A DNA stretch of 64,000 bases from an uncultured Parabacteroides sp. (GTDB lineage Bacteria; Bacteroidota; Bacteroidia; Bacteroidales; Tannerellaceae), in assembly GCA_944325345.1 (NCBI GenBank), contig CALUZV010000011.1, positions 24,920 to 88,919 on the forward strand. Reading direction: 5' to 3'. How positions within the stretch are numbered: position 1 is the first letter of the stretch; each line of letters opens with the position of its first letter. The notes beneath the pieces are model-generated. The model was not told the DNA's origin. It worked only from the letters and a program-made list of their open reading frames with translations, and searched no databases. Both the position numbers and the translations under genes were made by a program. Of the stretch, positions 4,787 to 59,957 are shown piece after piece.

Positions 4787-5121
4787 AAAAATTTACCCCG
4801 TATAAAAATATTTTTGGGGCAAATGCAAAAAAAATACCCTGCATACGGCGGTATATGGCGTAAGGAGGAATAAATTTACCCCTCCGCACCGGTGTAAACA
4901 GTGTAAATTCATACACAAATACTCCCATACACCGTTGTAAACGGCGTAAATTCATGCCTCAATACTCCCACTACACCGATGTAAAAGGCGCAAAAACGGC
5001 TTGTTTTACCCCCAAAATATCAATGTGAGGGGTAATATAAGCTGCATTTGCCCCAATTTATAAAATAAAAGGGGTGTATAAAAACAAATTTACCCCATAC
5101 ATGGATATGCATGGGGTAAAT
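4787..5121. repeat. Intergenic repeat block: 43-bp tandem units plus dispersed (A)AATTTACCCC / GGGGTAAA words
   Basis: GTAAA(C/A) recurs at 4894/4937/4981, GTAAATTCAT at 4903/4946 and AATACTCCCA at 4918/4961. TTTACCCC or its complement occurs at least 5 times. Confidence 0.7.
5078..5121 (-). terminator. Intrinsic terminator after the SusC/SusD/phosphoesterase operon
   Basis: Reverse strand: ATTTACCCCAT-GCATATCCATGT-ATGGGGTAAAT followed by TTGTTTTT. Confidence 0.55.
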
Positions 5122-5156
5122 CCTATCCTCCCGGGGGAGAAAATCAGCGTGGAGGC

Positions 5157-6320
5157 TTATTTTTTGATCACGAGCTGGTCAATCATCTTCCCATCGAGGT
5201 CGTAGATTCGGATATCCAGCTTGCCAGCGTCTGCATCGGCCTTGAGGAGCGTGTTGTTCGAATTGACAATGAGCGGGAAGGCAACGCCGTCTTTGCCCGC
5301 CTCGTTGCGAATGTACTGATGGAGGTGGCCGGTGAGGTAAACATCTGGTTTAGCCTGGTTTAGGACAGGGATGAACTTCTTCAATATGTCCAATTCGCCG
5401 TGCCAGCCGCCGAAGGGGGGCATGTGGCATACGACAACCTTGAATGGCGCATTGCGGTAGAGGTCGCTCTGGGTGATTTCGCTGAGCCACAGGGCCTGCT
5501 TGGAGCGGTAATTGTCGTAATCGGTGATTCCGTAGTATTCGACGTCAGAATCCGGCTTGTCCTCGCCGCAGTCGAGCACGAGGAAGCAGACCGGCCCCTG
5601 GCGGAAGGCATAGAAGAGCTCGTCGGCCTTCGGGTTGAAGTAGTCCTTGAAGTTTGGGGCCATGGCGCCGCGCGTCTCGTGGTTGCCACGGCAGTAATAC
5701 ATAGGGAGATTGGACGCGAACAGCTCGACAGCCTTGTCCATGAAACCGCCGAACATCTGCTCCTCGTTGTCAGAGATGGAAACCATGTCGCCGTTGAAGA
5801 GGAAAAGGTCGGTCGTCTCGAGATTGCACTGGTTGATCATGTTCTCCAGGACGTCGTTGCGGCCGTGGATGTCGTTGACCATTGCGAACGAGACGGAAGG
5901 CTTCGTTGCGTCGTTGGTGGTGAACGAATTAGCCTCCTTAGCGTAGCTAAAGGCCGTGGTGATGTCGCCATATATGACCTTATGCCCCTCGTGGCTGATG
6001 ACTTCTTGCGCGCAGACCCTGTATCTGTAGGTTGTGGCCGGCTTGAGGCCCTCGAGCTTCACGCTGTGGATGCGGGAGGTGTTCTTGATACCGATTTTCG
6101 TGTCGAAAATCTTCTGGCGCTCGGTGGCGTAGAAGTGCGAACCGTCGTCGGGGGCGATTTCGAGCCAGCCGATGGACGGTTTATCGGAGACCCAGACGAT
6201 AGTTACCTCGTTTTCGCCGAGGTTTTGCAGGTACGGGCCGTGCAGGATTTTGATTTCGGCCAAGAGCGGTGCGACGGCGCAGGTAAGGAGAATGAGAAGT
6301 AAGTTTAATTTGTTGTACAT
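5157..6320 (-). CDS. Secreted metallophosphoesterase (purple-acid-phosphatase-like, calcineurin fold)
   Basis: Motifs VNDIHG, NGDMV, GNHE and GHLH are present in order. The N-terminal 'GPYLQNLGENEVTIVW' is PAP-like. I chose the start at MYNKLNLLLILL (ATG 6320), which gives a signal peptide, over the track start at 6374. Confidence 0.75.
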   Translation of the reverse strand: MYNKLNLLLILLTCAVAPLLAEIKILHGPYLQNLGENEVTIVWVSDKPSIGWLEIAPDDGSHFYATERQKIFDTKIGIKNTSRIHSVKLEGLKPATTYRYRVCAQEVISHEGHKVIYGDITTAFSYAKEANSFTTNDATKPSVSFAMVNDIHGRNDVLENMINQCNLETTDLFLFNGDMVSISDNEEQMFGGFMDKAVELFASNLPMYYCRGNHETRGAMAPNFKDYFNPKADELFYAFRQGPVCFLVLDCGEDKPDSDVEYYGITDYDNYRSKQALWLSEITQSDLYRNAPFKVVVCHMPPFGGWHGELDILKKFIPVLNQAKPDVYLTGHLHQYIRNEAGKDGVAFPLIVNSNNTLLKADADAGKLDIRIYDLDGKMIDQLVIKK

Positions 6321-6423
6321 GATGATAAAATTTAAAATGAAACACAAAGGAGGGACGCGGCAGGGCCTTGGCAAGACCCTGGAGAGCGCACCTCCTTTGC
6401 AAAGTTAGATATAGAATTCGAAA

Positions 6424-8118
6424 TTAATAGCCTTCGTTCTGCACCAAGTTGGGATTAGCATCCAATTCGGCTTGCTGGAGCGGCAAATGGAGCTGGCGCT
6501 TGTTGAAGTAGCGGACTTCGATGCGCTGATCCTCAATCGGGGCATCCGGGTTGATGACGGCGCGTCGGTCAGGATCGGGCTCATCATAATCCACCGTGCC
6601 GCAGAAGCGGAGAAGGTCGCCGGGCATGACGGTTTCGGCGACTTTGCGTCCCGTCTTGGCGCCGCTGGCATCGTATTCGTCCCAGCGGACGATATCCTCG
6701 TAGCGGAAGCCCTCGCCGGCGAGCTCGATGGTACGTTCACGGCGGACGAGCTCACGGATTTGAGCCTGCGTGGTGTATTTAGAGCGATCGACAGCGATGT
6801 GTCCGCCGCGCAAGCGCAGCTGATCGACGATGTTGAGGGCCTCGGACAAGTCCTGGTTTAGCTCAACGAGGCATTCAGCTTTCGTCAGCAGAATCTCGGC
6901 GTAACGAAAGAGGATGGGGCAGAGGGCGTCGTCGTTCATGGACGTAGAATACTGCGATTGATTCGGGTAAAGGTATTTCGCCCAAAGCATACCCGTGTGC
7001 GAAGCATTGTCGGCGGCGAGATAGTAGTCATTATTGTTCGAGCCGTCAGGGAGAGTCTTATCGAGGGTGTTAAAAATACGCGGCACGTTGTTGCGGCCCA
7101 TCCAGTCGAGGCCTGAATAGATGACGGTATTTTTCAGACGCGGGTCGCGGTTGGCAAATGGGTGGACAGGGTCGTAGCCAGAGCCGGGCTCGTCGATACG
7201 CATGCCGTTGGCCATTTCGAACATATCGACCATGTTCTTCGTAGGGGTGTAGGAAGCCCAGCCGCCGTCGGCGTTGTTGTAAAAACGGATGACGTCGGTG
7301 TAGGCGTACGTCGTCTTGACGTGCTCATAGGTGCAGATGATTTCCTTGGAGTTCTGCCCGTTCATAGAAAACATGTTCAGGAAGTCCGGATCCAATTCAT
7401 ATTGTCCCAAAGCGATGACTTGGTTGGCAGCGTCCAATGCCTCCTGGTAATTACCCCAGAGGAGATTGAAGCGAGCAATCATCGAGAGGACGGCACCCTT
7501 GGCGATACGACCTTTTTCGGCAGGCTTTTCATTAATATGCTCTACACTCCAACGCAGGTCTTCCATCGCGAAGGCTTTAACGTCGGCTTCGGGGTCGCGA
7601 GCAACTTTCGCTTCGTCGGCAGTTGCCGGAATGAAGTCCATGATGACGGCGTCGCCGTACCAAGTTGCCAAATATGCATGGCTGTATCCACGGATGGCGC
7701 GGACTTGAGCCAGATATTCATTCTTAGCCTCTTCAGACAGTTCCGAAGCCGGGACACGGTCGATATTTTCGATAACGAAGTTGCAACGACGGATCGTTTC
7801 GTATTGTCTCCAATAGTTCGGAGCGCCGGCAGCAGAAACACCACCACGTCCCATGTCGCGCATATAGGAAGCGTTCGTGTAGTTGAAGCCGATATCCGAA
7901 TAGCTATCTTCGTAGAAGATGAACTTCGAGCCTAAGTAGTTGTTCGGCCACCAGTTGTAGGCTGCGGTTACGGCGGCGTTGACGTCGCTTTCCGTCTGCC
8001 AGAAGTTGTTGTCCGTCAATTGGTCTTTCGGACTTAAATCAAAGAAATCGTCGCACGCCGTGAAAAGGCTTGTGCTTAACAGGCATATTGCCCAGACAAA
8101 TATTTTTTTGAGTTTCAT
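6424..8118 (-). CDS. SusD/RagB-family outer-membrane lipoprotein
   Basis: 564 aa with a lipoprotein signal '...LFTAC'. It lies immediately downstream of the SusC-like gene with a 24-bp gap. Confidence 0.9.
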   Translation of the reverse strand: MKLKKIFVWAICLLSTSLFTACDDFFDLSPKDQLTDNNFWQTESDVNAAVTAAYNWWPNNYLGSKFIFYEDSYSDIGFNYTNASYMRDMGRGGVSAAGAPNYWRQYETIRRCNFVIENIDRVPASELSEEAKNEYLAQVRAIRGYSHAYLATWYGDAVIMDFIPATADEAKVARDPEADVKAFAMEDLRWSVEHINEKPAEKGRIAKGAVLSMIARFNLLWGNYQEALDAANQVIALGQYELDPDFLNMFSMNGQNSKEIICTYEHVKTTYAYTDVIRFYNNADGGWASYTPTKNMVDMFEMANGMRIDEPGSGYDPVHPFANRDPRLKNTVIYSGLDWMGRNNVPRIFNTLDKTLPDGSNNNDYYLAADNASHTGMLWAKYLYPNQSQYSTSMNDDALCPILFRYAEILLTKAECLVELNQDLSEALNIVDQLRLRGGHIAVDRSKYTTQAQIRELVRRERTIELAGEGFRYEDIVRWDEYDASGAKTGRKVAETVMPGDLLRFCGTVDYDEPDPDRRAVINPDAPIEDQRIEVRYFNKRQLHLPLQQAELDANPNLVQNEGY

Positions 8119-8142: not shown

Positions 8143-11100
8143 TTAGAAAGTAATATTAATACCAAAAGAGTGGGTCTGGCTCGACGGGTAACTTCTTCCA
8201 TCGCCTGAAGGGAATTCCGGATCGACATTGAACGGCAGGCTATCGATGGTGAAGAGGTTTTCACCCGTGTAGTAGATCTTGGCATTGGCAATGCCCAACT
8301 TGCTAGTCCACGATTTCGGCAACGTATAACTAAAGTTGATGTTCTTGAGGCGCAAGTAATTCGTGTTCATACACCAGAAGGTCGTGTTTACACGGTTCGG
8401 CGCGCTGATGGAGTTCTCTTCCAAGAACGTGCGAGGCCATTCGGTATCGGTATTCTGCGGAGTCCAAGCATCCAGCCAGTTTGTACTCGGGTGAGAAGTA
8501 TCGCCAATGAACGAACCAGCGACGTCGCGCTCGAAGTAACGATTTGTTCCCGTTACACCTTGGAAGAAGAGCGATAAATCGAAGTTCTTCCAGCCGGCGC
8601 TTAACGTCAAACCGTACGTCCCTTTTGGCTGCTGTGTCCCGCTGACAACTCTATCTTCTTCGCTCAGTTTGCCATCGCCATTGACATCCTTGATACGGAA
8701 ATCACCGCCCTTGAACGGCAATGCCCACGGGTTGCCATATTGAGCTTCGTAAGCTGCTGCTTCTTCGTCGCTCTGGAAGAGACCGTCCACTTGATAGACA
8801 TAGAAGGACTGATAAGCTTCCCCTACGCGGTTGATGGTGTATCCGCTGATAATTTCGTCCACGCCGGCAAGGTCGAGCAATTCATTTTTGTTATAGGCGA
8901 AGTTCGCATGGATGCCTATTCTCCAATCGTTGTTGAAGGAGTGATTCCAGCTGAAGTTCACTTCCACACCGCTATTGCGCAACGAACCTTTGTTGTCCTG
9001 GTATGTTCCGGAGATACCGAAGGTGTCGGAAACCGGGATATCCATGATAATGTCCGTTGTTTTGCGGTTGTAGTATTCTGCGCTCAACGAGAACTCGTTC
9101 AAGAAGACGGCATCGAAACCGATACCCCAGTTCGTTGATTGTTCCCAAGTAATGGTCGGCACTTTATAGCTTACCATCGTAATACCTTGGTTTACAGTCC
9201 CTCCGAACGGATAGTTCTTTCCAATATACAAAGTCTGCAAGGACGGATAATATTCATCCAAGGCATCTTGGTTACCTAAAAGACCCCAAGAACCTCTCAG
9301 TTTCAATGATTGTAACCAATCTTTAGCATCCGCCATGAAGTCTTCTTCCGAAATGCGCCATCCGGCAGAGAATGACGGGAAGTAACCCCAGCGATATCCT
9401 TTGGCAAAGCGTGAAGATGCATCCGCGCGGAAGTCTGCTTCCAACAAATACTTGCCTTTATAGTCATAATTGACGCGGCCGAAGTAGGAGAGCAAACCCA
9501 ACTCTGCGGAATTACCGCTATTGGTCTGCGTGGAGGAATCACCACCATTCAAGTCTGTAATGTCGCTATTGGGGAAGTCCTTACGGAAAGCAGTCAGCGT
9601 TCTCGTGTCGTATTTCTCCAATTTGTAACCGGCCAGAATCTTCAGGTTATGGTTTTCGTTAAACGTCTTTTCGTAGTTTGCCAAGATGTCCAACGTGTAT
9701 CGGCTCCAGCGATTGACGGTTTCTGTCAATTGGTCTGGCCCGTGATAATTCACTTCGTCGTACCAGCATTCTTTGCGATAGTCCTTCGTCTCTTTGATGT
9801 CTGTTACGTATGCGCCTTGCAATGTCAAGGTCAAACCATCGATGACATGGTAGTCGAAAGCCAAAACGCCCGAGAAGTTCTGCTGCAAGTAGCGTTTGCG
9901 GCTGTCAATGTCAATCCATGCTGCGGGGTTACCATCGGAAATGGAACCATAATTCCCATCTTCCTTCTTATAAGGAATCCACGGTGCCATACGGATAGCT
10001 TCCCAAATCACGGTTCCGTATCCGCCACCATAGGAAGCGTTCGGCTCGGAATAATTGTTGTTAATGAAGGCCATGTTGGTGCGCATATTGAATTTTTCAG
10101 ACAGCTTGATGTCCAAATTCGTACGCAAGTTAAACTGCTTGCGGTCTGAATTGCGCAACGTACCTTCCTGCCCCATGAAGCCTGCCGAAGCCATATATTT
10201 CACATCTTCCGTACCACCGCTGACATTCAGGTTGTGTTTGTGCATGAATCCCGTTCTGAAGATATAGTCTGTCCAAACCGTGTTCGGATGTCCGTAGGGA
10301 TCTGTTCCGTTTTGGAAAAGTTGGAGGTCTTCTTCCGTGAATCGCGGCGAGCTCCCGTCTTGTTGCAGCAACTGGTTGTAGAGGCGTGCATAGTCGTAAG
10401 AACTCAAGCGGTCCACCAAAGAATTGATCTTCGAGAAGCTAACATTGCCACTATACGATACCGTCGGTTTCCCCAGCTTCCCTCGTTTGGTCGTAACCAA
10501 GATAACGCCGTTGGCTGCCTTCGAACCATAAATGGCTGCCGAGGCTGCGTCTTTCAAGACGGAGATAGACTCGATATCGTTCGGATCGAGGGTATTGAAT
10601 GTCCCGGTTTCGATACCGTCCACCAAGATGTATGGGTCGGCATTGTTCAACGTACCGACACCGCGCACACGGATAGTTGCCGCATCCGCTCCCGGCTGTC
10701 CGGTTCCCGATGTAACCGTTACACCTGGTGTCAAACCTTGCAAGGCGGAGGATACGTTCGTTACCGGGCGGTCCAGCAACTCGTCGTTCGAGATGGTGCT
10801 GACGGCTCCCGTCAAGTTAACTTTCGTTTGCGTACCGTATCCCACGACTACAACTTCGTCCAGCGCCTCGGAATTCTCGCGGAGGGTGATGCTGAGCGTC
10901 TTTTCACCGTTAATTTTAATTTCTGCTGTGTTATAACCTATATAGGAAACTTGAAGTACGTCTCCAGGTGCTACCTGAAGCGTGAAATTGCCGTCGATGT
11001 CGGTTACCACACCATTTGTCGTCCCTTTCACCAAGATATTTGCGCCGATGATAGGAACTCCATGTTCATCAACTACATTACCAGTCAGATTATAAGTATT

Positions 11101-11229
11101 TTGCTGACTAACCCATGCCGTAGCATCTCCTGTATCTGTCGAAGCGAAGGCGGGAACGCCCCAAAGTTGGAAAGCTCCGACAAGACATAGCCCCATCAAA
11201 CCGGGAACTTGCTTCTTTTTCTTCTTCAT
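8143..11229 (-). CDS. SusC/RagA-family TonB-dependent outer-membrane transporter
   Basis: Carboxypeptidase-regulatory-like N-domain ('NLTGNVVDEHGVPIIGANILVKGT'), plug 'DEVVVVGYGTQTK', and C-terminal F. I chose the start at MKKKKKQVPG (ATG 11229). Confidence 0.9.
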   Translation of the reverse strand: MKKKKKQVPGLMGLCLVGAFQLWGVPAFASTDTGDATAWVSQQNTYNLTGNVVDEHGVPIIGANILVKGTTNGVVTDIDGNFTLQVAPGDVLQVSYIGYNTAEIKINGEKTLSITLRENSEALDEVVVVGYGTQTKVNLTGAVSTISNDELLDRPVTNVSSALQGLTPGVTVTSGTGQPGADAATIRVRGVGTLNNADPYILVDGIETGTFNTLDPNDIESISVLKDAASAAIYGSKAANGVILVTTKRGKLGKPTVSYSGNVSFSKINSLVDRLSSYDYARLYNQLLQQDGSSPRFTEEDLQLFQNGTDPYGHPNTVWTDYIFRTGFMHKHNLNVSGGTEDVKYMASAGFMGQEGTLRNSDRKQFNLRTNLDIKLSEKFNMRTNMAFINNNYSEPNASYGGGYGTVIWEAIRMAPWIPYKKEDGNYGSISDGNPAAWIDIDSRKRYLQQNFSGVLAFDYHVIDGLTLTLQGAYVTDIKETKDYRKECWYDEVNYHGPDQLTETVNRWSRYTLDILANYEKTFNENHNLKILAGYKLEKYDTRTLTAFRKDFPNSDITDLNGGDSSTQTNSGNSAELGLLSYFGRVNYDYKGKYLLEADFRADASSRFAKGYRWGYFPSFSAGWRISEEDFMADAKDWLQSLKLRGSWGLLGNQDALDEYYPSLQTLYIGKNYPFGGTVNQGITMVSYKVPTITWEQSTNWGIGFDAVFLNEFSLSAEYYNRKTTDIIMDIPVSDTFGISGTYQDNKGSLRNSGVEVNFSWNHSFNNDWRIGIHANFAYNKNELLDLAGVDEIISGYTINRVGEAYQSFYVYQVDGLFQSDEEAAAYEAQYGNPWALPFKGGDFRIKDVNGDGKLSEEDRVVSGTQQPKGTYGLTLSAGWKNFDLSLFFQGVTGTNRYFERDVAGSFIGDTSHPSTNWLDAWTPQNTDTEWPRTFLEENSISAPNRVNTTFWCMNTNYLRLKNINFSYTLPKSWTSKLGIANAKIYYTGENLFTIDSLPFNVDPEFPSGDGRSYPSSQTHSFGINITF

Positions 11230-11447
11230 ACAATAAAATAAAATAAACAAAAAACGTGTTTTTATTTCGACAACAAAGATACGAGAAAAAAAGTTGCAAA
11301 ACGATGACAAAATGGAAAAAAAATAATGAAAAATCACAACTCCTGCCCCTCCTTTCCCCTCCCTTTCCAAAATCACTACATTTAGTGATTGCCCATCCCG
11401 CCAAATCTTCCTTCCTTTGCATCCGCAATTAGAAAATGTAGCTTTAT

Positions 11448-13778
11448 ATGATGAAAAGAATAGCTTTGTGGAGCGCGATGGGGCTCTTTTGTGTGCAGAT
11501 GATGGCGAAGGCTGAAAATGATGAAATCGTTGATAACGACACGATTCGGATGATGAATGTCGATGAGGTGGTGATTACGTCATCGACGAAAGAGACGAAT
11601 GACTTCCGGACGCTCCCCAGCTCGGTCTCCGTCTTCACGCCGCAGCAAATCAACGGGCGACAGATCAGTGCTTTGAAAGATTTGAGCTCGTTCGTGCCGA
11701 ATCTTTATATCCCGGACTACGGTTCGCGCATGACATCGGCTATCTACATCCGCGGAATCGGAGCCCGGAGTAGCGGGCAGTCCATCGGGATGTATGTCGA
11801 TGATGTTCCCTATCTCGACAAGAGTACGTTCGATTTTGAGCTGAGCGACATCCAGCGTATCGAAGTTTTGCGCGGTCCGCAGGGGACGCTCTACGGACGC
11901 AACGCGATGGGGGGTATCGTAAAGATATATACCATTTCCCCCTTTGATTTCCAAGGGAAAAAAGTCTCACTATCGGCGGGAAACTACGGGCAAGTCAAAG
12001 CCAAGGCTTCGCACTACGGCCTTTTGAGCGAGAAGATCGGCTTCACGGCCGGAGTCTATTACGACCATACCAACGGATACTTTACCAATGAATATACAGG
12101 AGAAAAGGCGGACAAGGAGAATGTCGTCGGCGGGCGCCTGCGCCTCGAGGGACATTTCTCCCCGCATTTCTCGGCTTCCTACACGTTTTCGGCTGATTAT
12201 ACCGACCAGGGGGCTTTTCCCTACGGCCTTTATGACGCAGAGACGGGGACGGTTGCTCCCGTCAGCATGAACGACGAGTCGGCCTATTCCCGCACGATGT
12301 TCTCCAACCAGCTCCTCCTCGAATATCGCAACGACCTTTTCATCCTCTCCAGCACCACGGGCTACCAGTTTTTCAAAGACGATATGCGGATGGATCAGGA
12401 CTTTTCCCCGAAATCCATCTTTACCCTCAACCAGACGCAACGCCAACACGCCGTCAGCCAGGAACTTGCCCTGAAAGGCAACCGCGAGGGTAATTACCAA
12501 TGGTCGCTCGGTATGTACGGCTTTTACACGGGGCTGGAGACCGAGGGCCCCGTAACTTTCAAGGAGGACGGCATCCAGGAGATTTTCCAAGAACAGGTCT
12601 TCGACCCTATATATAATAATGTAGTAGCCGAAAATCCGAACACGATGATGCCCCGCCTCGTCGTCCTCGACAAGGAGCTGTACATCCCCGGCTCTTTCCA
12701 GACGCCTTCCTACGGCCTCGCCCTCTTCCACCAATCGACTTACAACAATCTCTTCGTCGATGGCCTCTCGCTGACTGCCGGGGTGCGTCTGGACTACGAA
12801 CATCAGCGGATGGACTACCAGAGCAACGCCAAGATGCAACTCGGCGCCCAATTCGGGAACAGTCCGGCGCTGATCGACCTCAGTTCGATGTACGACGAGA
12901 CGCGGGTCGATATTTCCACCTCGCAGGACTTCTGGCAGGTACTCCCGAAGGTCTCGCTCAAGTACGAATGCTCGCCCCGCACCTTCACCTACGTTTCTGT
13001 GGCCAAAGGATATAAGACCGGGGGGTATAACGTCCAAATGTCGGCAGACGTGATGCAGACACAGATGCAATACGATATGATGTCGGCTTTCAAGGCGATG
13101 ATTCCCACGGAAATCCCCGAGCCTTCGCCCATCGAGGATGTTGCCGCCTACAAGCCTGAGCAAAGCTGGAATTATGAGTTCGGCGCCCGTAGCGAGCTTC
13201 TTCCCGGCCGCCTGAATGCGGAGCTGACGTTCTTCTATATGGATATCACCGACCTCCAGCTCACCAAGTTTGTCAATAGCGGCAACGGCCGTGTCCTGAC
13301 CAACGCCGGGAGTGCGCGCAGCCTCGGCGTCGAGGCATCCCTCCGTGCGTATCTGCTTGAGGGGCTGACGGCCGACGTGAACTATGGATATACCCACGCA
13401 ACCTTCCGCGACTACGACACGGGCCAGGCCGACTATGCGGGAAACTATATCCCCTACACGCCGCGCCATACTGCCAGCCTCGCCCTCCAGTACGTCAAAC
13501 TTTTCCACGGCCTGTGGCTCGACCAGTTTTACGCCTCGGCCAACCTCAACGGGACGGGGAAAATCTTCTGGACCGAGCGCAACGACATCTCGCAAGACTT
13601 CTACCTGACGCTCAACGCCCGGGCAGGCGTCCGCCGGGGCATCTTGAACGTCGGCCTCTGGGCGCGCAACCTCACCAACACCGATTACGCCGCCTTCTAC
13701 TTCGAGTCGCGCAACCAGCCTTTCCTGCAAAAAGGGAAGCCCCTCCAAGTCGGTGTCGAGCTATCCATCAGTCTTTAA
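11448..13778 (+). CDS. TonB-dependent receptor (non-SusC type, 776 aa); substrate unknown
   Basis: Signal peptide, plug with 'DEVVITSS' and 'RIEVLRGPQGTLYGRNAMGG', then a long beta-barrel region. Confidence 0.85.
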   Translation: MMKRIALWSAMGLFCVQMMAKAENDEIVDNDTIRMMNVDEVVITSSTKETNDFRTLPSSVSVFTPQQINGRQISALKDLSSFVPNLYIPDYGSRMTSAIYIRGIGARSSGQSIGMYVDDVPYLDKSTFDFELSDIQRIEVLRGPQGTLYGRNAMGGIVKIYTISPFDFQGKKVSLSAGNYGQVKAKASHYGLLSEKIGFTAGVYYDHTNGYFTNEYTGEKADKENVVGGRLRLEGHFSPHFSASYTFSADYTDQGAFPYGLYDAETGTVAPVSMNDESAYSRTMFSNQLLLEYRNDLFILSSTTGYQFFKDDMRMDQDFSPKSIFTLNQTQRQHAVSQELALKGNREGNYQWSLGMYGFYTGLETEGPVTFKEDGIQEIFQEQVFDPIYNNVVAENPNTMMPRLVVLDKELYIPGSFQTPSYGLALFHQSTYNNLFVDGLSLTAGVRLDYEHQRMDYQSNAKMQLGAQFGNSPALIDLSSMYDETRVDISTSQDFWQVLPKVSLKYECSPRTFTYVSVAKGYKTGGYNVQMSADVMQTQMQYDMMSAFKAMIPTEIPEPSPIEDVAAYKPEQSWNYEFGARSELLPGRLNAELTFFYMDITDLQLTKFVNSGNGRVLTNAGSARSLGVEASLRAYLLEGLTADVNYGYTHATFRDYDTGQADYAGNYIPYTPRHTASLALQYVKLFHGLWLDQFYASANLNGTGKIFWTERNDISQDFYLTLNARAGVRRGILNVGLWARNLTNTDYAAFYFESRNQPFLQKGKPLQVGVELSISL

Positions 13779-13859: not shown

Positions 13860-14687
13860 TCACTGTACAACCGGGCGATCGTCCGGTTCTTCCTCTTCCG
13901 GCTTCTCGTCCTTTTTGTTCTTGTTGCGCGTCGCACGGCTTTTCAGCGTCGTTTTCTGCGTTTCAATATGCTGGTTCACAGCGCCGATGAAAGCGTCGTA
14001 CGTCGTGCCTTCTTCCAGGTTAGCCACTACATTAATCGTATCGACCATCGCGCGGTAAGCCTCGTCGGCCTCCTGCCGAGCTTCCTTCACGACACCCACC
14101 TCACGCGCGTCTTTCTCCTCCGCTTTTTGCTGGATGGCAAGCAGAAACGCGTCGTTTTCCTTGCGCAGGCGAGCCGTCCACGGGTCGATGCCGAGGAGCG
14201 TCCGTTTCTCGGACGGAATCGCCTCAAGGTCTTGCAAAAAGTTGTGCAGCGTCCCGCTTTCCGCCGTATAGGAGAGGTTCGTCGGGTCGCCGTACTTATC
14301 TACCACTTCTTCACCCTCGACAGCCGCCGCAGCGACATCCGCGTCGGGATGCATCGTCATCGCTTTCAGATAATTGCTGACGCCGCGCCAAGCGTAATCG
14401 CGAGCGTCGTCGGCCTTCGTAACCAGGGCGGAGGAGGCCAGTTTCTCGGAGTCCTTCAGCGCCTCGTCGAATTTTTCGAAAGCCGCCACGAACGCCGCCA
14501 CCTTTGCGTCCACACCTGCCTTGAAAGTACCGGCGGCGACAGACTGGACCGAAGGTTGCCCCGGATTTTCCTCCTCATCTTCTGTCTCGTATCCCATTTT
14601 CGGCAACTCCTTATAGACTAGTTGCTGGAAACCGAAATCCTCTTCGACCCAGAGACGACTCAGACCAAATTCTTTGATTTTACTCAT
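13860..14687 (-). CDS. Uncharacterised protein, paralog A (275 aa), helical with an acidic C-terminal tail ending DDRPVVQ
   Basis: Alignable by eye with 27286..28218: KIK..L.RL.VEEDFGFQQLV, ARDYAWRG.S.Y.KA, DKYG.PT.L, C-terminal DDRPVVQ. I chose the start at MSKIKEF (ATG 14687). Confidence 0.7.
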   Translation of the reverse strand: MSKIKEFGLSRLWVEEDFGFQQLVYKELPKMGYETEDEEENPGQPSVQSVAAGTFKAGVDAKVAAFVAAFEKFDEALKDSEKLASSALVTKADDARDYAWRGVSNYLKAMTMHPDADVAAAAVEGEEVVDKYGDPTNLSYTAESGTLHNFLQDLEAIPSEKRTLLGIDPWTARLRKENDAFLLAIQQKAEEKDAREVGVVKEARQEADEAYRAMVDTINVVANLEEGTTYDAFIGAVNQHIETQKTTLKSRATRNKNKKDEKPEEEEPDDRPVVQ

Positions 14688-14769: not shown

Positions 14770-15027
14770 AAAATATGTACGACAGGACAACTTTTTTTCA
14801 AGCGGAGCCGTCGTAGGCTACGACAGGACTACTTTTCGCCAAGAAGTGCTGTTGTAGCCTACGACAGCCTCGCTTTTTCCCAAGAAGTGCTTTCGTACCC
14901 TACGACAGGGCAAATAATCCTCAAGAACCCTTGTCGTACCCTACGACAGCCTCGCTTTTTCTCAAGTCGCTCTGGTGGTGAAAATTTGTTAACGGATTGA
15001 GCCGAATTTCTCTTGTCGTAGGCTTGG
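14770..15027. repeat. 41-bp phased array of the 8-3-8 dyad CTGTCGTA-NNN-TACGACAG
   Basis: TACGACAG occurs at 14778, 14819, 14860, 14901 and 14942. A left-arm remnant GTCGTAGG at 15015 is in phase (+82). Confidence 0.85.
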
Positions 15028-16641: not shown

Positions 16642-17127
16642 TTAAGCAAAAATACTTGCCGGCACCTCACCCGTCCAGGCTTTAGGCTGTTCGACGCCGA
16701 AGAGGCGAAGGATGACAGCGGCGGTGTTCACGGTGTTGTTTGGTTCCGTCATCCGGAGTCCCTTCGCGATACCCGGTCCTGTAAGCCCCCAAGGGACGAT
16801 CATTTCGTCGGTGCTGACCCCGCCGTGGCCGTACTCGATGCCGCCATGGTCGGTGAGGAAGAAGAAATGGGTATCGTCGTAGATGCCGTTTTGTTTCATC
16901 TGTTCCAACAGCTTGCCGATTTTCACGTCGGCCTCTTCGATGGATTTGATGTATTCCGGGGACATCCATTTATATTTGTGGCCTGCATGGTCGGTACGGA
17001 CGGAATAGAGGAAGACAAGTGTAGGCTGATTGCGGTTTTGCTCTTCACCACCTCCGCCGGATTGTGGGGGAAAACGCTGAAGAAGGTACTGTCGGTGAAA
17101 ATAGTACGCATACGAGCGGGGATGCGG
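16642..17127 (-). pseudogene. 5'-truncated remnant of an alkaline-phosphatase-superfamily (type I phosphodiesterase/nucleotide pyrophosphatase-like) gene
   Basis: The frame is open from the TAG at 17128-17130 down to 16642. It reads ...QPTLVFLYSVRTDHAGHKYKWMSPEY...FFLTDHGGIEYGHGG..., with DHAGH and TDHGG metal motifs. The N-terminal half, which carries the nucleophile, is missing. The only start in frame (16965) lies after the DHAGH motif. Confidence 0.5.
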
Positions 17128-17147
17128 CTAAAGGTTTAGGAAAACCG

Positions 17148-17215
17148 CCGAAGAGCTTCGGGGATTACTCTGAGGCTTTCGGGAAGTCTCCGAAACCCTT
17201 CGGGAACCTCCCGAC
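17148..17215. repeat. 21-bp phased mini-hairpins (CCGAAG-ag-CTTCGG type)
   Basis: TTCGG occurs at 17157/17178/17199. Hairpins include CCGAAGAGCTTCGG, TTTCGGGAAGTCTCCGAAA and CCGAAACCCTTCGG. Confidence 0.6.
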
Positions 17216-17474
17216 GGCTGTAGGCTAACGACCTTTCAACCATTTCCGCCCGCTCTTGGTTTTTGTTATCCAAAAGAGGAAGCCACCGCCGAAGACGATG
17301 CACATGGAGTAAAACATAAGGAGATAATCAATGCTGTCCATATTATTTGTCTTTTAAAAGTTTATACCCAATTGCTGCAAATAAAACAGTTGACCAATTG
17401 CTCATAGTTGTTTGTTTTAATGATTTGCCGACAAAGTTCGATATTCTGAGTGAATTATCCAACCAAATCTTGCC

Positions 17475-22088: not shown

Positions 22089-22226
22089 GCGTAGCCCTAC
22101 GAAAACGCGCTGCCGTCGGCGGGAAGCTTTCGTACCCCTACGAAACGCTGCTGCCGTCAGCAGGAGGCTTTCGTACCCCTACGAAACGTCGCTGCCGTCG
22201 GCGGGAGGTTTTCGTACCCCTACGCC
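22089..22226. repeat. 41-bp tandem units carrying the hairpin TTTCGTA-CCCC-TACGAAA plus a GC-rich dyad
   Basis: TTTCGTACCCC occurs at 22128/22169/22210, with a degenerate copy at about 22090. The second element is CTGCTG-CCGT-CAGCAG or GCCG-T-CGGC. Confidence 0.85.
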
Positions 22227-23199: not shown

Positions 23200-23631
23200 A
23201 TGGCGAAGAAAGAACAAGACATACGGTGGCAGCAACGCTTTTCGAATTATCGGAAAGCCCTCGCCCGGCTGACGCAGGCTGTAGAAATCATGCAGCAGCA
23301 CGAGACGGCAGGAAACGAGCTGGAGGCTCTGCTGCAAGAAGGTTTAATCCAGCGCTTTGAATATACGCACGAGTTGGCTTGGAAAGTCATGAAGGATTAT
23401 GCCGAGTACCAAGGATATACGGATATACGAGGCTCGCGCGACGCTATCCGGAAGGCGCTCGAGATGGGATTGATTGACGATCGGCGCTGGATGGAATCCA
23501 TCGAAGACCGCAACCTGACCTCGCACAATTACGATGACGAGACGGCGGAAGAAATCTATGAGAGTATCGTGCGCGTCTATCATCCTCTTTTCTGCCGCTT
23601 CGAGGCGGCCATGCTTGCGATTCCCGAATGA
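23200..23631 (+). CDS. HEPN-domain protein, HI0074-type 'nucleotidyltransferase substrate-binding' family (putative toxin)
   Basis: 'RFEYTHELAWKVMKDY' and an R-x4-H motif 'RNLTSH'. I chose the start at MAKKEQD (ATG 23200). Confidence 0.8.
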   Translation: MAKKEQDIRWQQRFSNYRKALARLTQAVEIMQQHETAGNELEALLQEGLIQRFEYTHELAWKVMKDYAEYQGYTDIRGSRDAIRKALEMGLIDDRRWMESIEDRNLTSHNYDDETAEEIYESIVRVYHPLFCRFEAAMLAIPE

Positions 23632-23646
23632 AAAACGGAGGGTTTT

Positions 23647-24045
23647 ATGTACGGACTGACAACTTTGGAATGGGAAACCCTGCGGAAAATATTCGCCCGG
23701 AACGAACGCATCGAACAGGTCGTCTTGTACGGCTCGCGGGCTAAAGGCACGCACAAGCCTTTCTCGGATGTCGATTTGACGCTGTTCGGCGAGCGATTGA
23801 CACGGCAGGACTTGAATCATTTGGCGGAAGCCCTCGATGAATCCTTCTTGCCATACCATTTTGATATTTCCCTCTTCAGGACTTTGAAAAACGAAGCATT
23901 GAAGGAGCACATCCACCGAATAGGCAAGCCCGTCTATCAGCGGCAAGAATCTCCCCGCGAGGGGTTGCAAACTTCGTCCGCTTGTCGTACCTTTGCCTCC
24001 CCAAATGAAAGAGACAAGCAAGATGAGAACAATCCAATTAAATGA
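23647..24045 (+). CDS. Minimal nucleotidyltransferase (MNT) domain protein (putative antitoxin)
   Basis: 'LYGSRAKGTHKPFSDVDL' fits the G-S-x9-11-D-x-D motif. About 32 aa of low-similarity C-terminal extension overlaps the hpt start. Confidence 0.8.
   Translation: MYGLTTLEWETLRKIFARNERIEQVVLYGSRAKGTHKPFSDVDLTLFGERLTRQDLNHLAEALDESFLPYHFDISLFRTLKNEALKEHIHRIGKPVYQRQESPREGLQTSSACRTFASPNERDKQDENNPIK
23988..23995 (+). promoter_or_regulatory. -7 box (TACCTTTG) for hpt, embedded in the 3' end of the MNT ORF
   Basis: 28 nt upstream of ATG 24023. Confidence 0.4.
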
Positions 24046-27285: not shown

Positions 27286-28218
27286 TCACTGCACGACCGG
27301 ACGGTCGTCGTCTTCCTGTCCGCCAGGTTGTTCGTCCGGATTTTCCGGAGTCTCGTCCGGCGTGTCGGTCGGCTGGTCCGGAGTTTCAGAAGGGTTGTCC
27401 GGTGTGTCGGTCGGCTCTTCCGGCGTCTCGTCGGTATCGTCCGAGTCGTCGTCGCCGCGCGATTCGCGGTTTTTCAACGTCTTCTGTTGTTTTTCAATGT
27501 GCTTGTTTACAACAGCAATGAAATCCTTATAATTCTCGTCGCCTTCGACCTCGACGAGCATGTTAATCATATTGACCAGCGAGCGGTAGGCGTTGTCGGC
27601 CTCCTTTCGCGATTGTTTGATGATACCGACGTTGAGGGCCGCCTCTTCCGCCGCTTTCTGCTTCACCAGCTGGACGAACTTGTCGTTTTCGGTGCGGAGG
27701 CGTTCATTCCATTCATCGATACCCATTTCCGTACGTTCTTCCTCCGGCATAGCCTCCAGTTCCTGCAGCGTGTTGTGAATCACACCGCTTTCTTCCGTCT
27801 GCGTGAGCGACGTCGGGTTCCCGTACTTATCCAAAATATCCTTCGTCTTTGATGCGAGCGCGACGACCTCGCTTCTCGGATGCATCAGCAACGCTTTCAC
27901 ATAACTGCTCAAACCTCTCCAAGCATAGTCGCGTGCTTCGTCAGCTTGCGAAACTGCTGCGCTGGAAGGGGCTTGCGAGTCGCCTTTCAGTGCGGCATCG
28001 AAATTTTCGTGTGCCGTTTTGAAAGTCTCGACCTTCGTCTTCAGGGCCTCGGCAAACGGCGAGTCCAGCGCGCTCTGGACTACCGGGAGGTCCTCGTCGC
28101 CGCCTCCGCTTTCCGTTTCCAGCTTCAGGCGGGGCGTCTCGGCCACCACCAACTGTTGAAAACCGAAATCTTCTTCGACGTGGAGGCGAGTTAATGCTAA
28201 CTGTTTAATTTTAGTCAT
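27286..28218 (-). CDS. Uncharacterised protein, paralog B (310 aa), with a long (T/S)(D/E)TP(D/E)-rich acidic tail ending DDRPVVQ
   Basis: Same conserved blocks as 13860..14687. I chose the start at MTKIKQL (ATG 28218); the track start at 28224 is a TTG. Confidence 0.7.
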   Translation of the reverse strand: MTKIKQLALTRLHVEEDFGFQQLVVAETPRLKLETESGGGDEDLPVVQSALDSPFAEALKTKVETFKTAHENFDAALKGDSQAPSSAAVSQADEARDYAWRGLSSYVKALLMHPRSEVVALASKTKDILDKYGNPTSLTQTEESGVIHNTLQELEAMPEEERTEMGIDEWNERLRTENDKFVQLVKQKAAEEAALNVGIIKQSRKEADNAYRSLVNMINMLVEVEGDENYKDFIAVVNKHIEKQQKTLKNRESRGDDDSDDTDETPEEPTDTPDNPSETPDQPTDTPDETPENPDEQPGGQEDDDRPVVQ

Positions 28219-28299: not shown

Positions 28300-28520
28300 T
28301 TAAAAAATCTACGACGGTGCATTTTTTTGGAAAAAAGAGCCGTCGTAGCCTACGACAGCCGATTTTTCTGGAAAAAAGCTCTGTCGTAGGGTACGACAGC
28401 CGATTTTTCTGGAAAAAAGCCCTGTCGTAGGGTACGACGACCGATTTTTCTGAAAAAAAGCCCTGTCGTAGGCTACGACAGCATTTCCTGGAAAAAGGAA
28501 GCACCGTCGTAGATTTTTAT
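28300..28520. repeat. 41-bp phased array of the dyad CTGTCGTA-SSS-TACGACAG alternating with TTTTTC-TG-GAAAAA
   Basis: TACGAC occurs at 28310/28351/28392/28433/28474. The array is bounded by an 18-bp perfect inverted repeat: AAAAATCTACGACGGTGC (28303-28320) and GCACCGTCGTAGATTTTT (28501-28518). Confidence 0.9.
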
Positions 28521-36034: not shown

Positions 36035-36400
36035 AAACATACCCCTATGTTTGGCACTTTCCCATCCGGAAGTATCAAACATAGGGGTATGTTTTGCCCT
36101 TTCCCGTCCGGAAGTGCCAAACATAGGGGTATGTTTGGGGGAAAAGATGGTGTGGTTAGCCAAACCCAGGGGTGGATTTGGCACTTTTAAACCGGAAAGT
36201 ATCAAACCCAGGGGTGGATTTGGCACTTTTGAACCGGAAAGTATCAAACCCAGGGGTGGTTTTGGTACTTTTGAACTGGAAAGTGCCAAACCCAGGGGTG
36301 GATTTGGCACTTTTGGATTGGAAAGTACCAAACCCAGGGGTGGATTTGGCACTTTTGAATTGGAAAATAACAAACCCACCCCTGGGTTTGGCACTTCGGC
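36035..36400. repeat. 42-bp phased hairpin array with two subfamilies (CAAACATA-GGGG-TATGTTTG x3, CCAAAcCCA-GGGG-TGGaTTTGG x6)
   Basis: CAAACATA occurs at 36076/36118. CAAACCC occurs at 36161/36203/36245/36287/36329/36371. The first and last units carry the loop as CCCC, i.e. flipped. Confidence 0.9.
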
Positions 36401-40092: not shown

Positions 40093-40258
40093 CCGAGAGA
40101 AACTTCGCTCGGTCCCGGGAAAACTTCGTTTAGTCCGAGGAAAACTTTCCTTCCCCGGGAGGGAAACTTAAAACCAAGCTTTAGTTTTCAAAAACTGAAC
40201 TTTTGTTTTTATAAACTAAGACTTGGTTTTTAAAAACTAAAGTTTGGTTTTAAGAATA
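40093..40258. repeat. Mini-hairpin array with a period of about 21 bp (GAAAACTT words, then AAAAC-N9-GTTTT units)
   Basis: AAACTT occurs at 40100/40121/40142/40164 and GTTTT at 40185/40205/40226/40247. Confidence 0.7.
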
Positions 40259-40361
40259 AGTCCTGACCAATTCAAGTATTCCTCGGACGTATTGAAGTAT
40301 TCTTCCGACCTTTTTCTCTTTTTTACGGGACAATTCACCAAAGAATCCGGATTAAATCCTT

Positions 40362-44542: not shown

Positions 44543-44733
44543 CCGCCCTCTCGGGCGGAGACGATCCGCCCTATAAGGCGGCAGTGTCCCGCCCAGTAAG
44601 GCGGCGATGAACCGCCCGAGAGGGCGGAGGTGTTCCGCCCGATAAGGCGGTAGTGTCCCGCCCAGTAAGGCGGCGATGAACCGCCCGAGAGGGCGGAGGT
44701 GTTCCGCCCGATAAGGCGGTAGTGTCCCGCCGT
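44543..44733. repeat. Nine CCGCCC-loop-GGCGG hairpins on a 23-bp period (69-bp super-period of three loop variants)
   Basis: CCGCCC occurs at 44543/44566/44589/44612/44635/44658/44681/44704/44727. The loops cycle GAGA(G), (G/T)ATAA, AGTAA. The last hairpin is followed by a T-run. Confidence 0.9.
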
Positions 44734-48018: not shown

Positions 48019-48042
48019 CTTTCTCCCCTTTGGTATAAAACA

Positions 48043-52843: not shown

Positions 52844-52869
52844 CAGGAACGCCGCCGGTGCTGAAAAAG

Positions 52870-53139
52870 GTTTCCTGCAATTTGCAAGACGCTTGCGACG
52901 GCGTCGCGAGCGTCCTTACATTTGCAGAGTTGCTTGCGACGGCGTCGCAAAGCCCAAAATATTTGCAGAGTTCTTTGCGACGGCGTCGCAAGCGTCCTTT
53001 TTTTTGCAGAGTCGTTTGCGACGGCGTCGCAAGCGTCTTGTTTTTTGCAGAGTTCTTTGCGACGGCGTCGCAAACGTCTTGTTTTTTTGCAGAGCTCTTT
53101 GCGACGGCGTCGCAAGCTACTCTGCAAATTGCAGGAAAC
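52870..53139. repeat. Six 41-bp units carrying the palindrome TTGCGACG-G-CGTCGCAA, bounded by a 17-bp perfect inverted repeat
   Basis: GCGACGGCGTCGC occurs at 52895/52936/52977/53018/53059/53101. The terminal inverted repeat is GTTTCCTGCAATTTGCA (52870-52886) and TGCAAATTGCAGGAAAC (53123-53139). Confidence 0.9.
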
Positions 53140-53251
53140 TATTTTTCGCCTATATTGTACTTTTAACATTAATAAAACATCAAATCCGAAAAATATCCCG
53201 TAAATTCGTGCCAACAAATACAAATAACAACCTTATAAATTATAATTTATC

Positions 53252-57200: not shown

Positions 57201-57208
57201 TACTTTTG
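57201..57208 (+). promoter_or_regulatory. -7 box (TACTTTTG)
   Basis: 36 nt upstream of the 57244 start. Confidence 0.4.
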
Positions 57209-57243
57209 CTTTATTATTGTTAAACATCAAATATCATCATAAT

Positions 57244-58431: not shown

Positions 58432-58535
58432 CTATCCTCTTCTTCTATAATGTGTGCCGGTTTGCGTCATTCTTCATGGCGTAGGCTGGCACTTTTCCTA
58501 TCACCCTATCCATATAACCCCTAAAAAACACAAGG

Positions 58536-59855
58536 ATGAACTGGCAACAACTCCTATCAGACAAGCGCTTTGGCTTGGAAGAATATCATGGACACAAACA
58601 AGAGCGGACGGACTTCCAGCGCGACTATGACCGGCTTATCTTCTCTTCTCCCTTCCGCCGGATGCAGAACAAAACCCAAGTATTCCCTTTGCCCGGGAGT
58701 ATTTTCGTGCACAATAGATTGACGCATAGCTTGGAGGTCTCGTGTGTAGGCCGCTCTTTGGGGAATCATATCGCGAAGGAATTGAGTGTAAAGTATCCGG
58801 CGTTGGTTAGCAACCTGTCAGAGATTGGGGCTATCGTGTCTGCCGCTTGCTTGGCGCATGATATGGGGAACCCGCCCTTTGGCCATTCGGGAGAGCGTGC
58901 TATCTCTGCCTACTTCGCCGAGGGATATGGGAAGAAGTTGGAAGAAACTATCAGGGAAGAAGGCGGGAGATGGGAAGACTTTATTCATTTTGAAGGGAAT
59001 GCCAATGCCTTGCGCCTGTTGACTCACCAGTTCAATGGGCGGCGCAAAGGAGGTTTTGTCCTGACTTACTCTACCTTGGCTTCTATCATCAAATATCCCT
59101 ATTCCTCTCTCTATGCCGGAGAGAAAGGGAAGTTCGGCTTCTTTCAGAGCGAGGAAGAATCGTTCCTCCGCATAGCCGAAGAGTTGGGGATCGGGCATGA
59201 CCCTAAGGATGACAAGCGTTTCCTTCGCCATCCCTTGGTGTACTTGGTTGAAGCGGCTGATGATATATGTTACCAAATCATGGATATTGAGGATGCGCAT
59301 AAGCTCCATATATTAACGAAGGAAGAAACTATAGACCTCCTCCTCAGCTTCTTTGACGAGAAAAGACGGGAGCGTAGTTTATATGTGATGAAGATGGTGG
59401 ACGATACCAACGAGCAGATAGCCTACCTCCGCTCGTGCATCGTCGGCATTCTGGTGGATGAATGTAGCCGAGTCTTCCTTGAGAATGAGGCGGGAATACT
59501 CGATGGAACGTATCACGGGGCACTGATTGACCACATCAGCGATATTCCCCGATTGGCATATAAAGAGTGTACGAAAACCGCATGGAATAAGATATACAAA
59601 GCCAAAGAAGTATTGGATATTGAGCTTGCGGGCTATCATATCTTCAGCCATCTGATTGATAGCTTGGCCGAAGCCGTCATGCGCCCCGAGCACGCTTATA
59701 GCAAGCTCCTGCTCCAACGTATTCCCGAGCAGTACAACGTCAAAGCCCCGACCGTCTATGGAAAGATACAATGCGTGCTTGACTATATATCCGGGATGAC
59801 TGATGTCTATGCCTTGGATCTATACAGGAAGGTTACGGGTAATGCCTTATTCTAA
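58536..59855 (+). CDS. dgt: dGTP triphosphohydrolase-family HD-domain protein
   Basis: 'RLTHSLEV' and 'AHDMGNPPFGHSGE'; 439 aa. Confidence 0.88.
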   Translation: MNWQQLLSDKRFGLEEYHGHKQERTDFQRDYDRLIFSSPFRRMQNKTQVFPLPGSIFVHNRLTHSLEVSCVGRSLGNHIAKELSVKYPALVSNLSEIGAIVSAACLAHDMGNPPFGHSGERAISAYFAEGYGKKLEETIREEGGRWEDFIHFEGNANALRLLTHQFNGRRKGGFVLTYSTLASIIKYPYSSLYAGEKGKFGFFQSEEESFLRIAEELGIGHDPKDDKRFLRHPLVYLVEAADDICYQIMDIEDAHKLHILTKEETIDLLLSFFDEKRRERSLYVMKMVDDTNEQIAYLRSCIVGILVDECSRVFLENEAGILDGTYHGALIDHISDIPRLAYKECTKTAWNKIYKAKEVLDIELAGYHIFSHLIDSLAEAVMRPEHAYSKLLLQRIPEQYNVKAPTVYGKIQCVLDYISGMTDVYALDLYRKVTGNALF

Positions 59856-59860
59856 GATCG

Positions 59861-59957
59861 TCCCAGTACTTCCCGGGAAGTACTCCAATCCTTCCCCAGC
59901 AGTACTCCAGTACTCTCGGGGAAGTACTGCACTCCTCTCTGGGGAGGACTGGGCACA
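59861..59957. repeat. AGTACT-word repeat block including a perfect 20-bp palindrome
   Basis: AGTACTTCCCGGGAAGTACT lies at 59866-59885. AGTACT also occurs at 59902, 59910 and 59924. The outer arms GTCCCAGTACTTCC / GGAGGACTGGGCAC are partially complementary. Confidence 0.65.

Follow-up and report, generated by a model that had tools for sequence, protein, structure and literature searches.

Why should one 64-kb stretch of a gut bacterial chromosome hold ten intergenic arrays of tandemly repeated hairpins, nearly all of them different in sequence? The stretch in question (hereafter the window) comprises 64,000 nucleotides of contig CALUZV010000011.1, from an uncultured Parabacteroides sp.; a preliminary description, made from the letters alone, reported the arrays (A1 to A10 below) as evenly phased and private in sequence, and did not recognize them as a named class of repeat. 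On balance, we lean toward reading them as hairpin minisatellites that slippage and template switching drive, that are dispersed in part, and of which at least some are under selection as structure acting in cis. Observations that bear on this are changes of length and content at fixed loci between strains, paired substitutions in hairpin stems, and a nearly constant array upstream of genes of the DUF6261 family. LpxD as encoded in the window shares 78-81% identity with Parabacteroides proteins, and the GC content is near 52%; the host is therefore a Parabacteroides-like bacterium of the Tannerellaceae, of a kind frequent in human gut metagenomes. ENA contig ERZ28614617 scaffold_430 is identical to the window at every array compared.

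Arrays in the window

Tandem Repeats Finder (TRF), run on the window, recovers nine of the ten arrays with the periods first noted. At cut-offs of score at least 60 and period at least 12, it returns 16 rows from the window and none from 20 block shuffles of it; two of the 16 are a coding repeat inside a DUF6261 gene (27332-27443) and not intergenic. For most arrays the fold energy is well under that of mononucleotide shuffles (z from -2.4 to -18.5; for the sub-array at 40255-40312 this comparison was not significant). By these three measures the arrays are real, and so are their periods and hairpin content. The arrays, with the two DUF6261 genes discussed below, are:

A1, 4787-5121: 43-bp repeat, 2.5 copies at 4887-4994, within a cluster of TTTACCCC/GGGGTAAA hairpins (from TRF and unit reading); neighbors are Metallophos and DUF418 genes, both on the minus strand
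DUF6261 paralogue 1, 13860-14687, minus strand: 275 aa; gene downstream of A2
A2, 14770-15027: 41-bp repeat (TRF 14778-14966), arms TACGACAG/CTGTCGTA, centers GGC, GCC or CCC; begins about 85 bp upstream of DUF6261 paralogue 1
A3, 17148-17215: weak run of CCGAAG/CTTCGG hairpins about 21 bp apart, below TRF detection; adjoins a hotspot of gene content
A4, 22089-22226: 41-bp repeat, 3.3 copies (TRF 22090-22224), TTTCGTAccccTACGAAA plus a GC hairpin
DUF6261 paralogue 2, 27286-28218, minus strand: 310 aa; partner of A5
A5, 28300-28520: 41-bp repeat, 4.4 copies (TRF 28321-28496), between the divergent DUF6261 paralogue 2 and B3_4 genes
A6a, 36035-36140: 42-bp repeat, 2.2 copies (TRF 36046-36138), CAAACATAggggTATGTTTG plus ACTTCC..GGAAGT, immediately 3' of the cdd stop codon
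A6b, 36150-36400: 42-bp repeat, 5.6 copies (TRF 36160-36396), a diverged relative of A6a whose final unit has its center flipped to CCCC
A7, 40093-40310: 21-bp repeat in three adjoining sub-arrays (TRF 40100-40147, 40170-40251 and 40270-40309), between divergent M23 peptidase and glucosaminidase genes
A8, 44543-44733: 23-bp hairpin GGCGG-loop-CCGCC (TRF 44553-44731) with a 69-bp superperiod at 95% identity, in the pyrF-lpxD gap
A9, 52864-53146: 41-bp repeat, 5.5 copies (TRF 52893-53117), TTGCGACGgCGTCGCAA plus a T-rich segment
A10, 59861-59957: 22-bp repeat, 2 copies (TRF 59901-59945), AGTACTTCCcgGGAAGTACT type, between convergent HD and ACR_tran genes

One extent has to be redrawn. The 43-bp array of A1 stands, but 4787-5121 was too generous an extent for it: the true tandem repeat is only 108 bp, and the remainder consists of the TTTACCCC/GGGGTAAA hairpins. 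A3 is the array that TRF does not call, although its weak hairpin run, at a spacing of about 21 bp, is present.

On a gene map derived from annotated relatives, the arrays account for 2162 of 6922 intergenic bp (31%), and of the 17 gaps that measure 150 bp or more, 10 contain arrays; this agrees with the earlier impression that they fill a large share of the non-coding DNA. They occur at tandem, divergent and convergent junctions, also as first described. Self-BLAST of the window detects cross-locus similarity only between A2 (14770) and A5 (28300), so that the ten arrays make up about nine sequence families. Independent assemblies, with contigs of 0.88 and 2.2 Mb among them, contain the same arrays, which are therefore not assembly artefacts. 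Searching the window against Rfam at the gathering score gave tRNA as the sole match and no array family; a TTCC..GGAA motif common to arrays shows only weak enrichment in them (4 of its 20 window occurrences); and scans of viral contigs with array units returned nothing, or single palindromes at chance level, giving no phage link.

As was also anticipated, gene callers emit spurious repetitive open reading frames (ORFs) across the arrays. Examples are 3831-4004 in L001, 52840-53166 in the window, and P0216-P0227 (labels beginning with L denote comparison loci from other strains or relatives, and those beginning with P matches in a protein collection). These ORFs serve as a handle by which the same repeat family can be located in protein databases.

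Variation between strains

Do the arrays change within a species? In comparison strains whose flanks are 97-98% identical to the window, several do so in steps of one unit. The anchored gap around A4 measures 137, 178, 219 or 301 bp (41-bp steps), and A8 139, 162 or 231 bp (23-bp steps), with a diverged allele of 154 bp in L021. The A10 gap is 115 or 137 bp, strain L018 being 22 bp shorter, and A9 measures about 146 bp at its shortest, in L024, and exceeds 480 bp in L020; A7 is constant in length in the five strains seen. Local amplification had been proposed from the window, and this is the variation in copy number that it predicted.

Arrays are also replaced outright. In the cdd-pgm gap of strain L013, A6 has given way completely to an unrelated 41-bp array of 4.8 copies, and in the pyrF-lpxD gap of L021 a diverged 23-bp array is found. 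Strain L014 has another A5 allele, with new arms GTCAACAG/CTGGAAAC, in which the total length and the A/T-rich palindrome are unchanged. The breakpoints of whole-gap replacements coincide with the ends of the flanking genes. In a sister species (L025, LpxD 88% identical), the cdd-pgm gap holds a different 41-bp array of seven copies, and the gap orthologous to that of A7 is much shorter (145 bp), with no array called. The A8 array is not present in two related species; in L025, no array precedes lpxD.

Arrays also leave a mark on the assemblies themselves. Short-read contigs stop inside A9 (L022-L024, with ends near 10957-11063), and the L020 scaffold has a gap of N at about 11000-11200; the arrays therefore fragment assemblies.

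Unit structure and stem maintenance

Reading of the units shows that they follow one plan. The underlying module is palindromic and about 21 bp long; its arms measure 5-8 bp and its center 1-7 nt. Arrays with periods of 21-23 bp repeat one module type; those of 41-43 bp alternate two different palindromes, with centers about 19-21 bp apart and hence two dyads per unit. In A5 (28300), CTGTCGTA-GGC-TACGACAG alternates with ATTTTTC-TG-GAAAAAA, and in A9 (52870), TTGCGACG-G-CGTCGCAA alternates with a T-rich segment. Because both halves of a unit are palindromic, the unit is also a long imperfect hairpin, and the whole array is approximately its own reverse complement. Two arrays have, in addition, outer inverted repeats that exceed what unit symmetry explains: a terminal inverted repeat of 23 bp in A9 (52864-52886 and 53123-53145, AAAAAGGTTTCCTGCAATTTGCA) and a perfect one of 18 bp in A5 (28303-28320 and 28501-28518, AAAAATCTACGACGGTGC).

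Hairpin stems survive through compensatory change, and units within one array are homogenized. In A8, the 11 units of two window-type alleles all have C-G at stem pair 3-15, and the six units of the L021 allele all have T-A there; pair 6-12, unpaired or A-T in the window type, becomes C-G in L021. This evidence is good but not perfect, because the register between alleles rests on 15 of 23 shared positions. Matched arm changes also separate A6a from A6b (CATA/TATG to CCCA/TGGA), and the L025 array shows them likewise in its units 3-4. Change in the centers is for the most part complementary: the nine in A2 and A5 are restricted to GGC/GCC and GGG/CCC, and one-base centers swap between G and C in the L025, L030 and L035 arrays.

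Arrays upstream of DUF6261 genes

That the arm sequences of different loci differ, except those of A2 and A5, was borne out by self-BLAST, and the exception is no coincidence: both of these arrays lie upstream of paralogous DUF6261 genes, which are about 66% identical in DNA. The first four DUF6261 genes examined, namely the pair in the window and those of L030 and L036, all have a 41-bp array just upstream. More widely, TRF calls an array of 41, 42 or 82 bp within 450 bp upstream at 52 of 80 metagenome DUF6261 loci; from the end of such an array to the start codon the distance is 51-155 bp, most commonly 96-103 bp. Autocorrelation over lags of 12-89 bp, computed for 24 distinct upstream regions, peaks at 41-42 or 82-84 bp in 22. 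Position and period are kept across lineages whose DUF6261 proteins are 38-46% identical to those of the window.

What is conserved within the units? They differ between lineages, yet are related to one another in the unit comparison described below. Units of different lineages retain a right half-site, xxxGACA(R)C, in which the inner 3 bp co-vary, as in the arm pairs TGTCGTA..TACGACA, TGTCCCC..GGGGACA, TGTCCGAG..CTCGGACA and GTCGAC..GTCGAC. The window array ends just upstream of a plausible promoter, TTTG-N21-TAACTTCG, which we take to be of the Bacteroidetes type. The subset of arrays upstream of DUF6261 genes is probably a selected upstream element, since neutral DNA would be unlikely to keep both position and period across such divergence.

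The protein itself does not point to a function. It is acidic (pI 4.4-4.7) and all-helical, with a conserved C-terminal PDDRPVVQ motif; no fold in the PDB matched at an E-value below 0.05, and Pfam, NCBIfam, PHROGs and PADLOC gave no informative match besides the DUF itself. On these grounds, a role as transposase, nuclease or DNA-binding protein was rejected. Among 94 DUF6261-bearing loci none has two copies of the gene on which co-variation of arms could be checked.

Some further features of these loci may be noted. The 310-aa protein of the window is 85-90% identical to most database versions, and its gene is 98-100% identical in DNA in five directly aligned strains. The coding repeat at 27332-27443 has a period of 21/42 bp, is in frame, and lies in the acidic T/P/D/E-rich tail of paralogue 2; numerically, it matches the period of the non-coding arrays. 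In L036, hairpins of a second family (AGCCCGGCAATTCATTGCCGGG) border the DUF6261 gene with its upstream array on either side, at 7859-7971 and 9400-9600, so that the module looks nested inside another array. One protein match, P0209 (480 aa, with sigma-54 domains), is 84% identical over 31% of the DUF6261 query; it lies on a 2-kb contig, and may be a fusion or a mis-call.

Array periods

Is the narrow range of periods peculiar to the window? Arrays of the sister species L025 have periods of 41 and 22 bp; in a species whose LpxD is 84% identical, they are 22/44 and 23 bp. In the L029-L031 species, the values are 42, 41 and 42 bp, plus one 165-bp repeat; in P. distasonis, 23 bp; in two further relatives, 23 and 22 bp; in L035, 41 and 22/44 bp; and in L036, 41 and 41 bp, plus one 15-bp repeat. 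A larger sample, 900 kb around DUF6261 genes, contains 86 arrays: 31 at 41 bp, 14 at 42, 9 at 82, 10 at 23, 7 at 22 and 4 at 21, with 11 at other periods. When the DUF6261-upstream arrays are removed and duplicates collapsed, 13 of 22 families still have periods of 21-23 or 41 bp. The 21-23 and 41-43 bp classes thus dominate in the lineages sampled, to which this statement is confined. Judging from relationships among unit sequences, the restriction could in part reflect inheritance within old repeat superfamilies. The proposal that the dyads are phased on one face of the helix would fit periods of 21 and 41-42 bp, but does not fit the 23-bp arrays.

Dispersal beyond the window

Are the families private? 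Within the window they are, the A2/A5 pair apart: every other family was seen once in the self-comparison of 64 kb. To look beyond it, the protein collection was queried with the spurious ORF running through A9, and likewise with that of the 36035 array (A6). Matches to the A9 ORF are mostly the same locus in other strains. However, in P0222 (L035) the 41-bp unit of A9 itself lies between DUF362 ferredoxin and NAD kinase genes, an unrelated locus; the left end of this array is the reverse complement of the right end of A9, and the two have a leader and a terminal inverted repeat in common. In P0227 (L036) an A9-related unit is directly upstream of another DUF6261 gene. The 36035 search found related ORFs with a 14-residue repeat, in one of which every unit center is flipped to CCCC. 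By these matches at least three families are not private, and the A9 family is laid out like a non-autonomous mobile element. The apparent privacy of the families is due to the sample of 64 kb and is not a property of the families.

Other searches were less productive. A scan of metagenomes with the A9 unit gave no matches, and a scan of 185,579 species genomes with CTGTCGTASSSTACGACAG gave five unrelated single matches only, none in the species of the window. Comparison of 26 units, all against all, gave 19 pairs above the 99.9th percentile of shuffles, where 0.3 were expected; the families left unlinked were those of 4787, 22089, the L013 allele, L025 and L030a-c.

Termination

Many units had been described as terminator-like. 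A scan for the consensus of a hairpin plus T-run finds such sites in the units of A5 (both strands) and A9 (plus strand, the coding direction) and in two units of A2; in A8 a T-run follows only the last unit, A6 (36035) has a single site, and none was found in A4 (22089), A7 (40093) or A10 (59861). In L025, the cdd-pgm array sits between the convergent cdd and pgm terminators, outside both transcription units. Iterated terminators therefore fit some arrays, and are not a general explanation.

Relation to known repeats

The arrays were not at first recognized as a named class, a point that has to be corrected. Intergenic tandem direct repeats of 41, 23 and 22 nt were noted in the Porphyromonas gingivalis W83 genome, and two systems there have been described under names of their own, as presented in Klein et al. 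(2015; PMC4596501). BrickBuilt has a 23-nt repeat without spacers, at 19 per genome, with IS5-like ends (GAGACCTTTGCA); it is reported to have dyad symmetry, a leader and a tail with inverted-repeat ends, and a copy number that varies between strains. MITE464/PgRS has 41-nt repeats within an element bearing terminal inverted repeats. In the light of these P. gingivalis repeats, the class is not unnamed.

How close is the resemblance? To judge by that account, the likeness to BrickBuilt includes intergenic location, a spacerless 23-bp period (in A8 and its L021 allele), change of copy number between strains, membership of the same bacterial order, the dyad symmetry of units seen in the folding scores, and outer inverted repeats (in A9 and A5). 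BrickBuilt is reported as a single family, whereas here there are many unrelated families, and its long leader and tail are not evident here. The BrickBuilt terminal repeat GAGACCTTTGCA does not occur above chance in the window, and the ends of A9 and A5 (23 and 18 bp) are other sequences. With MITE464/PgRS and the other W83 repeats, compared by their reported periods, the window arrays have the same three period classes in common, and A9 has terminal inverted repeats as well. The arrays would thus seem to be of the same kind as the 22/23/41-nt repeats of P. gingivalis, to which they are likened by description rather than by unit sequence. No report of hairpin minisatellites from the group of the window's host was found in the literature searched, and the class has been little studied. 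Several points are new here: the families are numerous; one array can replace another in the same gap among strains of a single species; compensatory change maintains the stems; the two period classes recur from lineage to lineage; and a 41-42 bp array is nearly constant upstream of DUF6261 genes.

Other systems are less similar. Bacterial VNTR minisatellites, such as mycobacterial interspersed repetitive units (MIRUs), also lie between genes as tandem repeats, 40-100 bp long, and strains differ in the number of copies; as generally understood, MIRUs are distinct from the present arrays in comprising few dispersed families and in having no marked dyads, no restriction to two periods and no replacement within the same gap. 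Quasipalindrome template-switch mutagenesis has been described in E. coli; it would yield complement-type centers and matched arms, and is a mutational mechanism, rather than an element, which we propose may operate here. Repetitive extragenic palindromic (REP) sequences and the bacterial interspersed mosaic elements (BIMEs) built from them have been proposed to act in termination and mRNA stability. Like the arrays, they are short imperfect palindromes clustered between genes, and some array units have GTAG or CGTC tags, a concept taken from PMC3733652. CRISPR arrays were rejected, since the units abut without spacers and no cas domains are in the gene lists; integron attC sites or cassette arrays, since the window has no integrase and the units abut without cassettes; and plasmid-type iterons, since there is no rep gene and the ten regions lie among chromosomal housekeeping genes.

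Possible origins and roles

In the account that we prefer, replication slippage, or exchange between units out of register, would lengthen and shorten the arrays, and template switching within a hairpin would copy arms and centers onto each other, producing complement-type centers (GGG/CCC, GGC/GCC, G/C) together with compensatory arm changes. Some families may have spread as non-autonomous mobile elements, and the arrays may act in cis as DNA or RNA structure: as phased upstream DNA beside a promoter in the DUF6261 subtype, and as terminator- or insulator-like hairpins where the units carry T-runs. A number of points weigh against this. Any function in cis is something that we infer. No transposase, target-site duplication or empty-site pair was seen for any array, so that mobility is not shown, and the second A9 locus (L035) may lie in another species. 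Slippage on its own does not account for periods of 21-23 and 41-43 bp. The center of A4, CCCC in the window and GCCC in L003, is not a clean inversion, and ordinary point changes also occur. As for RNA structure, the sense strand folds more stably in three of five tandem-gene contexts, which is inconsistent, and arrays at divergent promoters (A5, A7) do not suit a terminator role.

Could the arrays instead be purely neutral or selfish by-products? Hairpins would stall replication, slippage would duplicate them and amplification would outrun decay, with no function for the cell; hairpins would persist because only hairpin-forming units get amplified. Fast turnover and variable copy number fit this well, as do the absence, in close relatives, of A8 and of any array in a much shorter A7 gap, the lack of shared sequence among most families, and the presence of arrays at every junction type. 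Harder to reconcile with it are the DUF6261 array, which keeps its position (its end is about 100 bp before the ATG) and its period at 38-46% protein identity, and the re-occupation of the same gap by different arrays of the same period class; we regard a wholly neutral origin as possible, if rather unlikely. Another proposal makes each family a set of operator or enhancer sites for its own transcription factor, with 41-42 bp amounting to four helical turns and placing dimers on one helical face. The kept half-site with its co-varying inner 3 bp, the plausible promoter just downstream of the DUF6261 arrays, and the 19 related pairs of units from different lineages would all be expected of such a system. 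Nine unrelated families in 64 kb would, however, require about as many dedicated factors, no regulator gene adjoins the arrays, the convergent gaps of A6 and A10 have no promoter, and arms change completely between strains of one species, so that dedicated operators seem a poor prospect as an overall explanation.

Action at the RNA level, whether as iterated terminators, mRNA-stabilizing hairpins or small-RNA precursors, would account for the units of A9 (plus strand) and A5 and the last unit of A8 that pass the hairpin-plus-T-run scan, and for the G.T pairs in the coding-direction strand of the L021 A8 allele and the pgm-sense strand of A6b. It is made quite improbable by the position of A5 between divergent promoters although it is terminator-like on both strands, by the lack of any such site in A4, A7 and A10, by the L025 array that lies outside both transcription units, by the absence of a consistently more stable sense strand, and by the lack of an Rfam family at gathering score. 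Least probable of all, and by our estimate barely worth entertaining, is a REP/BIME-type system in which a RAYT (TnpA-REP) transposase would amplify extragenic palindromes. The units recall it, being imperfect palindromes of 20-40 bp that cluster between genes, and the tags are GTAG/CTAC in A2, A5 and A4 and CGTC/GACG in A9; but REP families are highly multicopy, running to hundreds of copies, and alternate in orientation, whereas the ten arrays belong to about nine families of few copies with units head to tail, and no Y1 transposase is among the annotated genes of the window.

A more speculative extension of the preferred account, offered tentatively and with the expectation that it may well be wrong, is that a molecular ruler specific to one part of the Bacteroidales (Tannerellaceae and Porphyromonadaceae) creates or selects palindrome arrays with dyads about 21 bp apart, which would be read by shape rather than sequence. 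The ruler could be a structure-recognizing protein or a step in replication or repair, and the arrays would be a distinct class of cis-acting architectural DNA; the DUF6261 array would be its best-conserved use, and replacement between strains a way of rewiring expression. If the preferred account holds, a common human gut bacterium has a third of its non-coding DNA in a fast-changing layer, which current annotation overlooks or mis-calls as genes. A period restriction common to unrelated sequences and to two bacterial families points to a constraint or mechanism, and the near-constant array would be a first experimental lead on the DUF6261 family. In practical terms, arrays that break short-read assemblies and separate strains 97-98% identical should be useful for strain typing and for cleaning up gene calls.

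Other variable sites

Gene content also varies beside some of the arrays. In five strains (L002-L006, at 11077-11768), a toxin-antitoxin cassette of 690 bp, Gp49/HigB-like plus HTH_3 with its own promoter, occupies the distal edge of A2, corresponding to window position 15015-15021; it is not in the window or L001. Its junctions match the A2 unit arm over only about 5 bp (ACGAC), which is not a clean core site, and an integron-like reading of this edge was rejected. In L018, lpxA and tRNA-Thr are separated by an insertion sequence of DDE_Tnp_1 type (4510-5838, near window position 48030), whose inverted ends show no relation to any array.

At 23200-24045, a nucleotidyltransferase/NTase_sub_bind pair, toxin-antitoxin-like, is present in the window, L001, L004 and L006; at the same site, no gene was called in L003, and L002 and L005 have CorA instead. 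The hotspot bordered by A3 (window 16642-17224; about 6900-9450 in L002, L003 and L005) lies between a gene for a 38-aa protein and rpmE (L31), and contains, depending on the strain, a MacB/FtsX gene, a full sulfatase gene or a TRL gene; in the window, an internal deletion has truncated the sulfatase.

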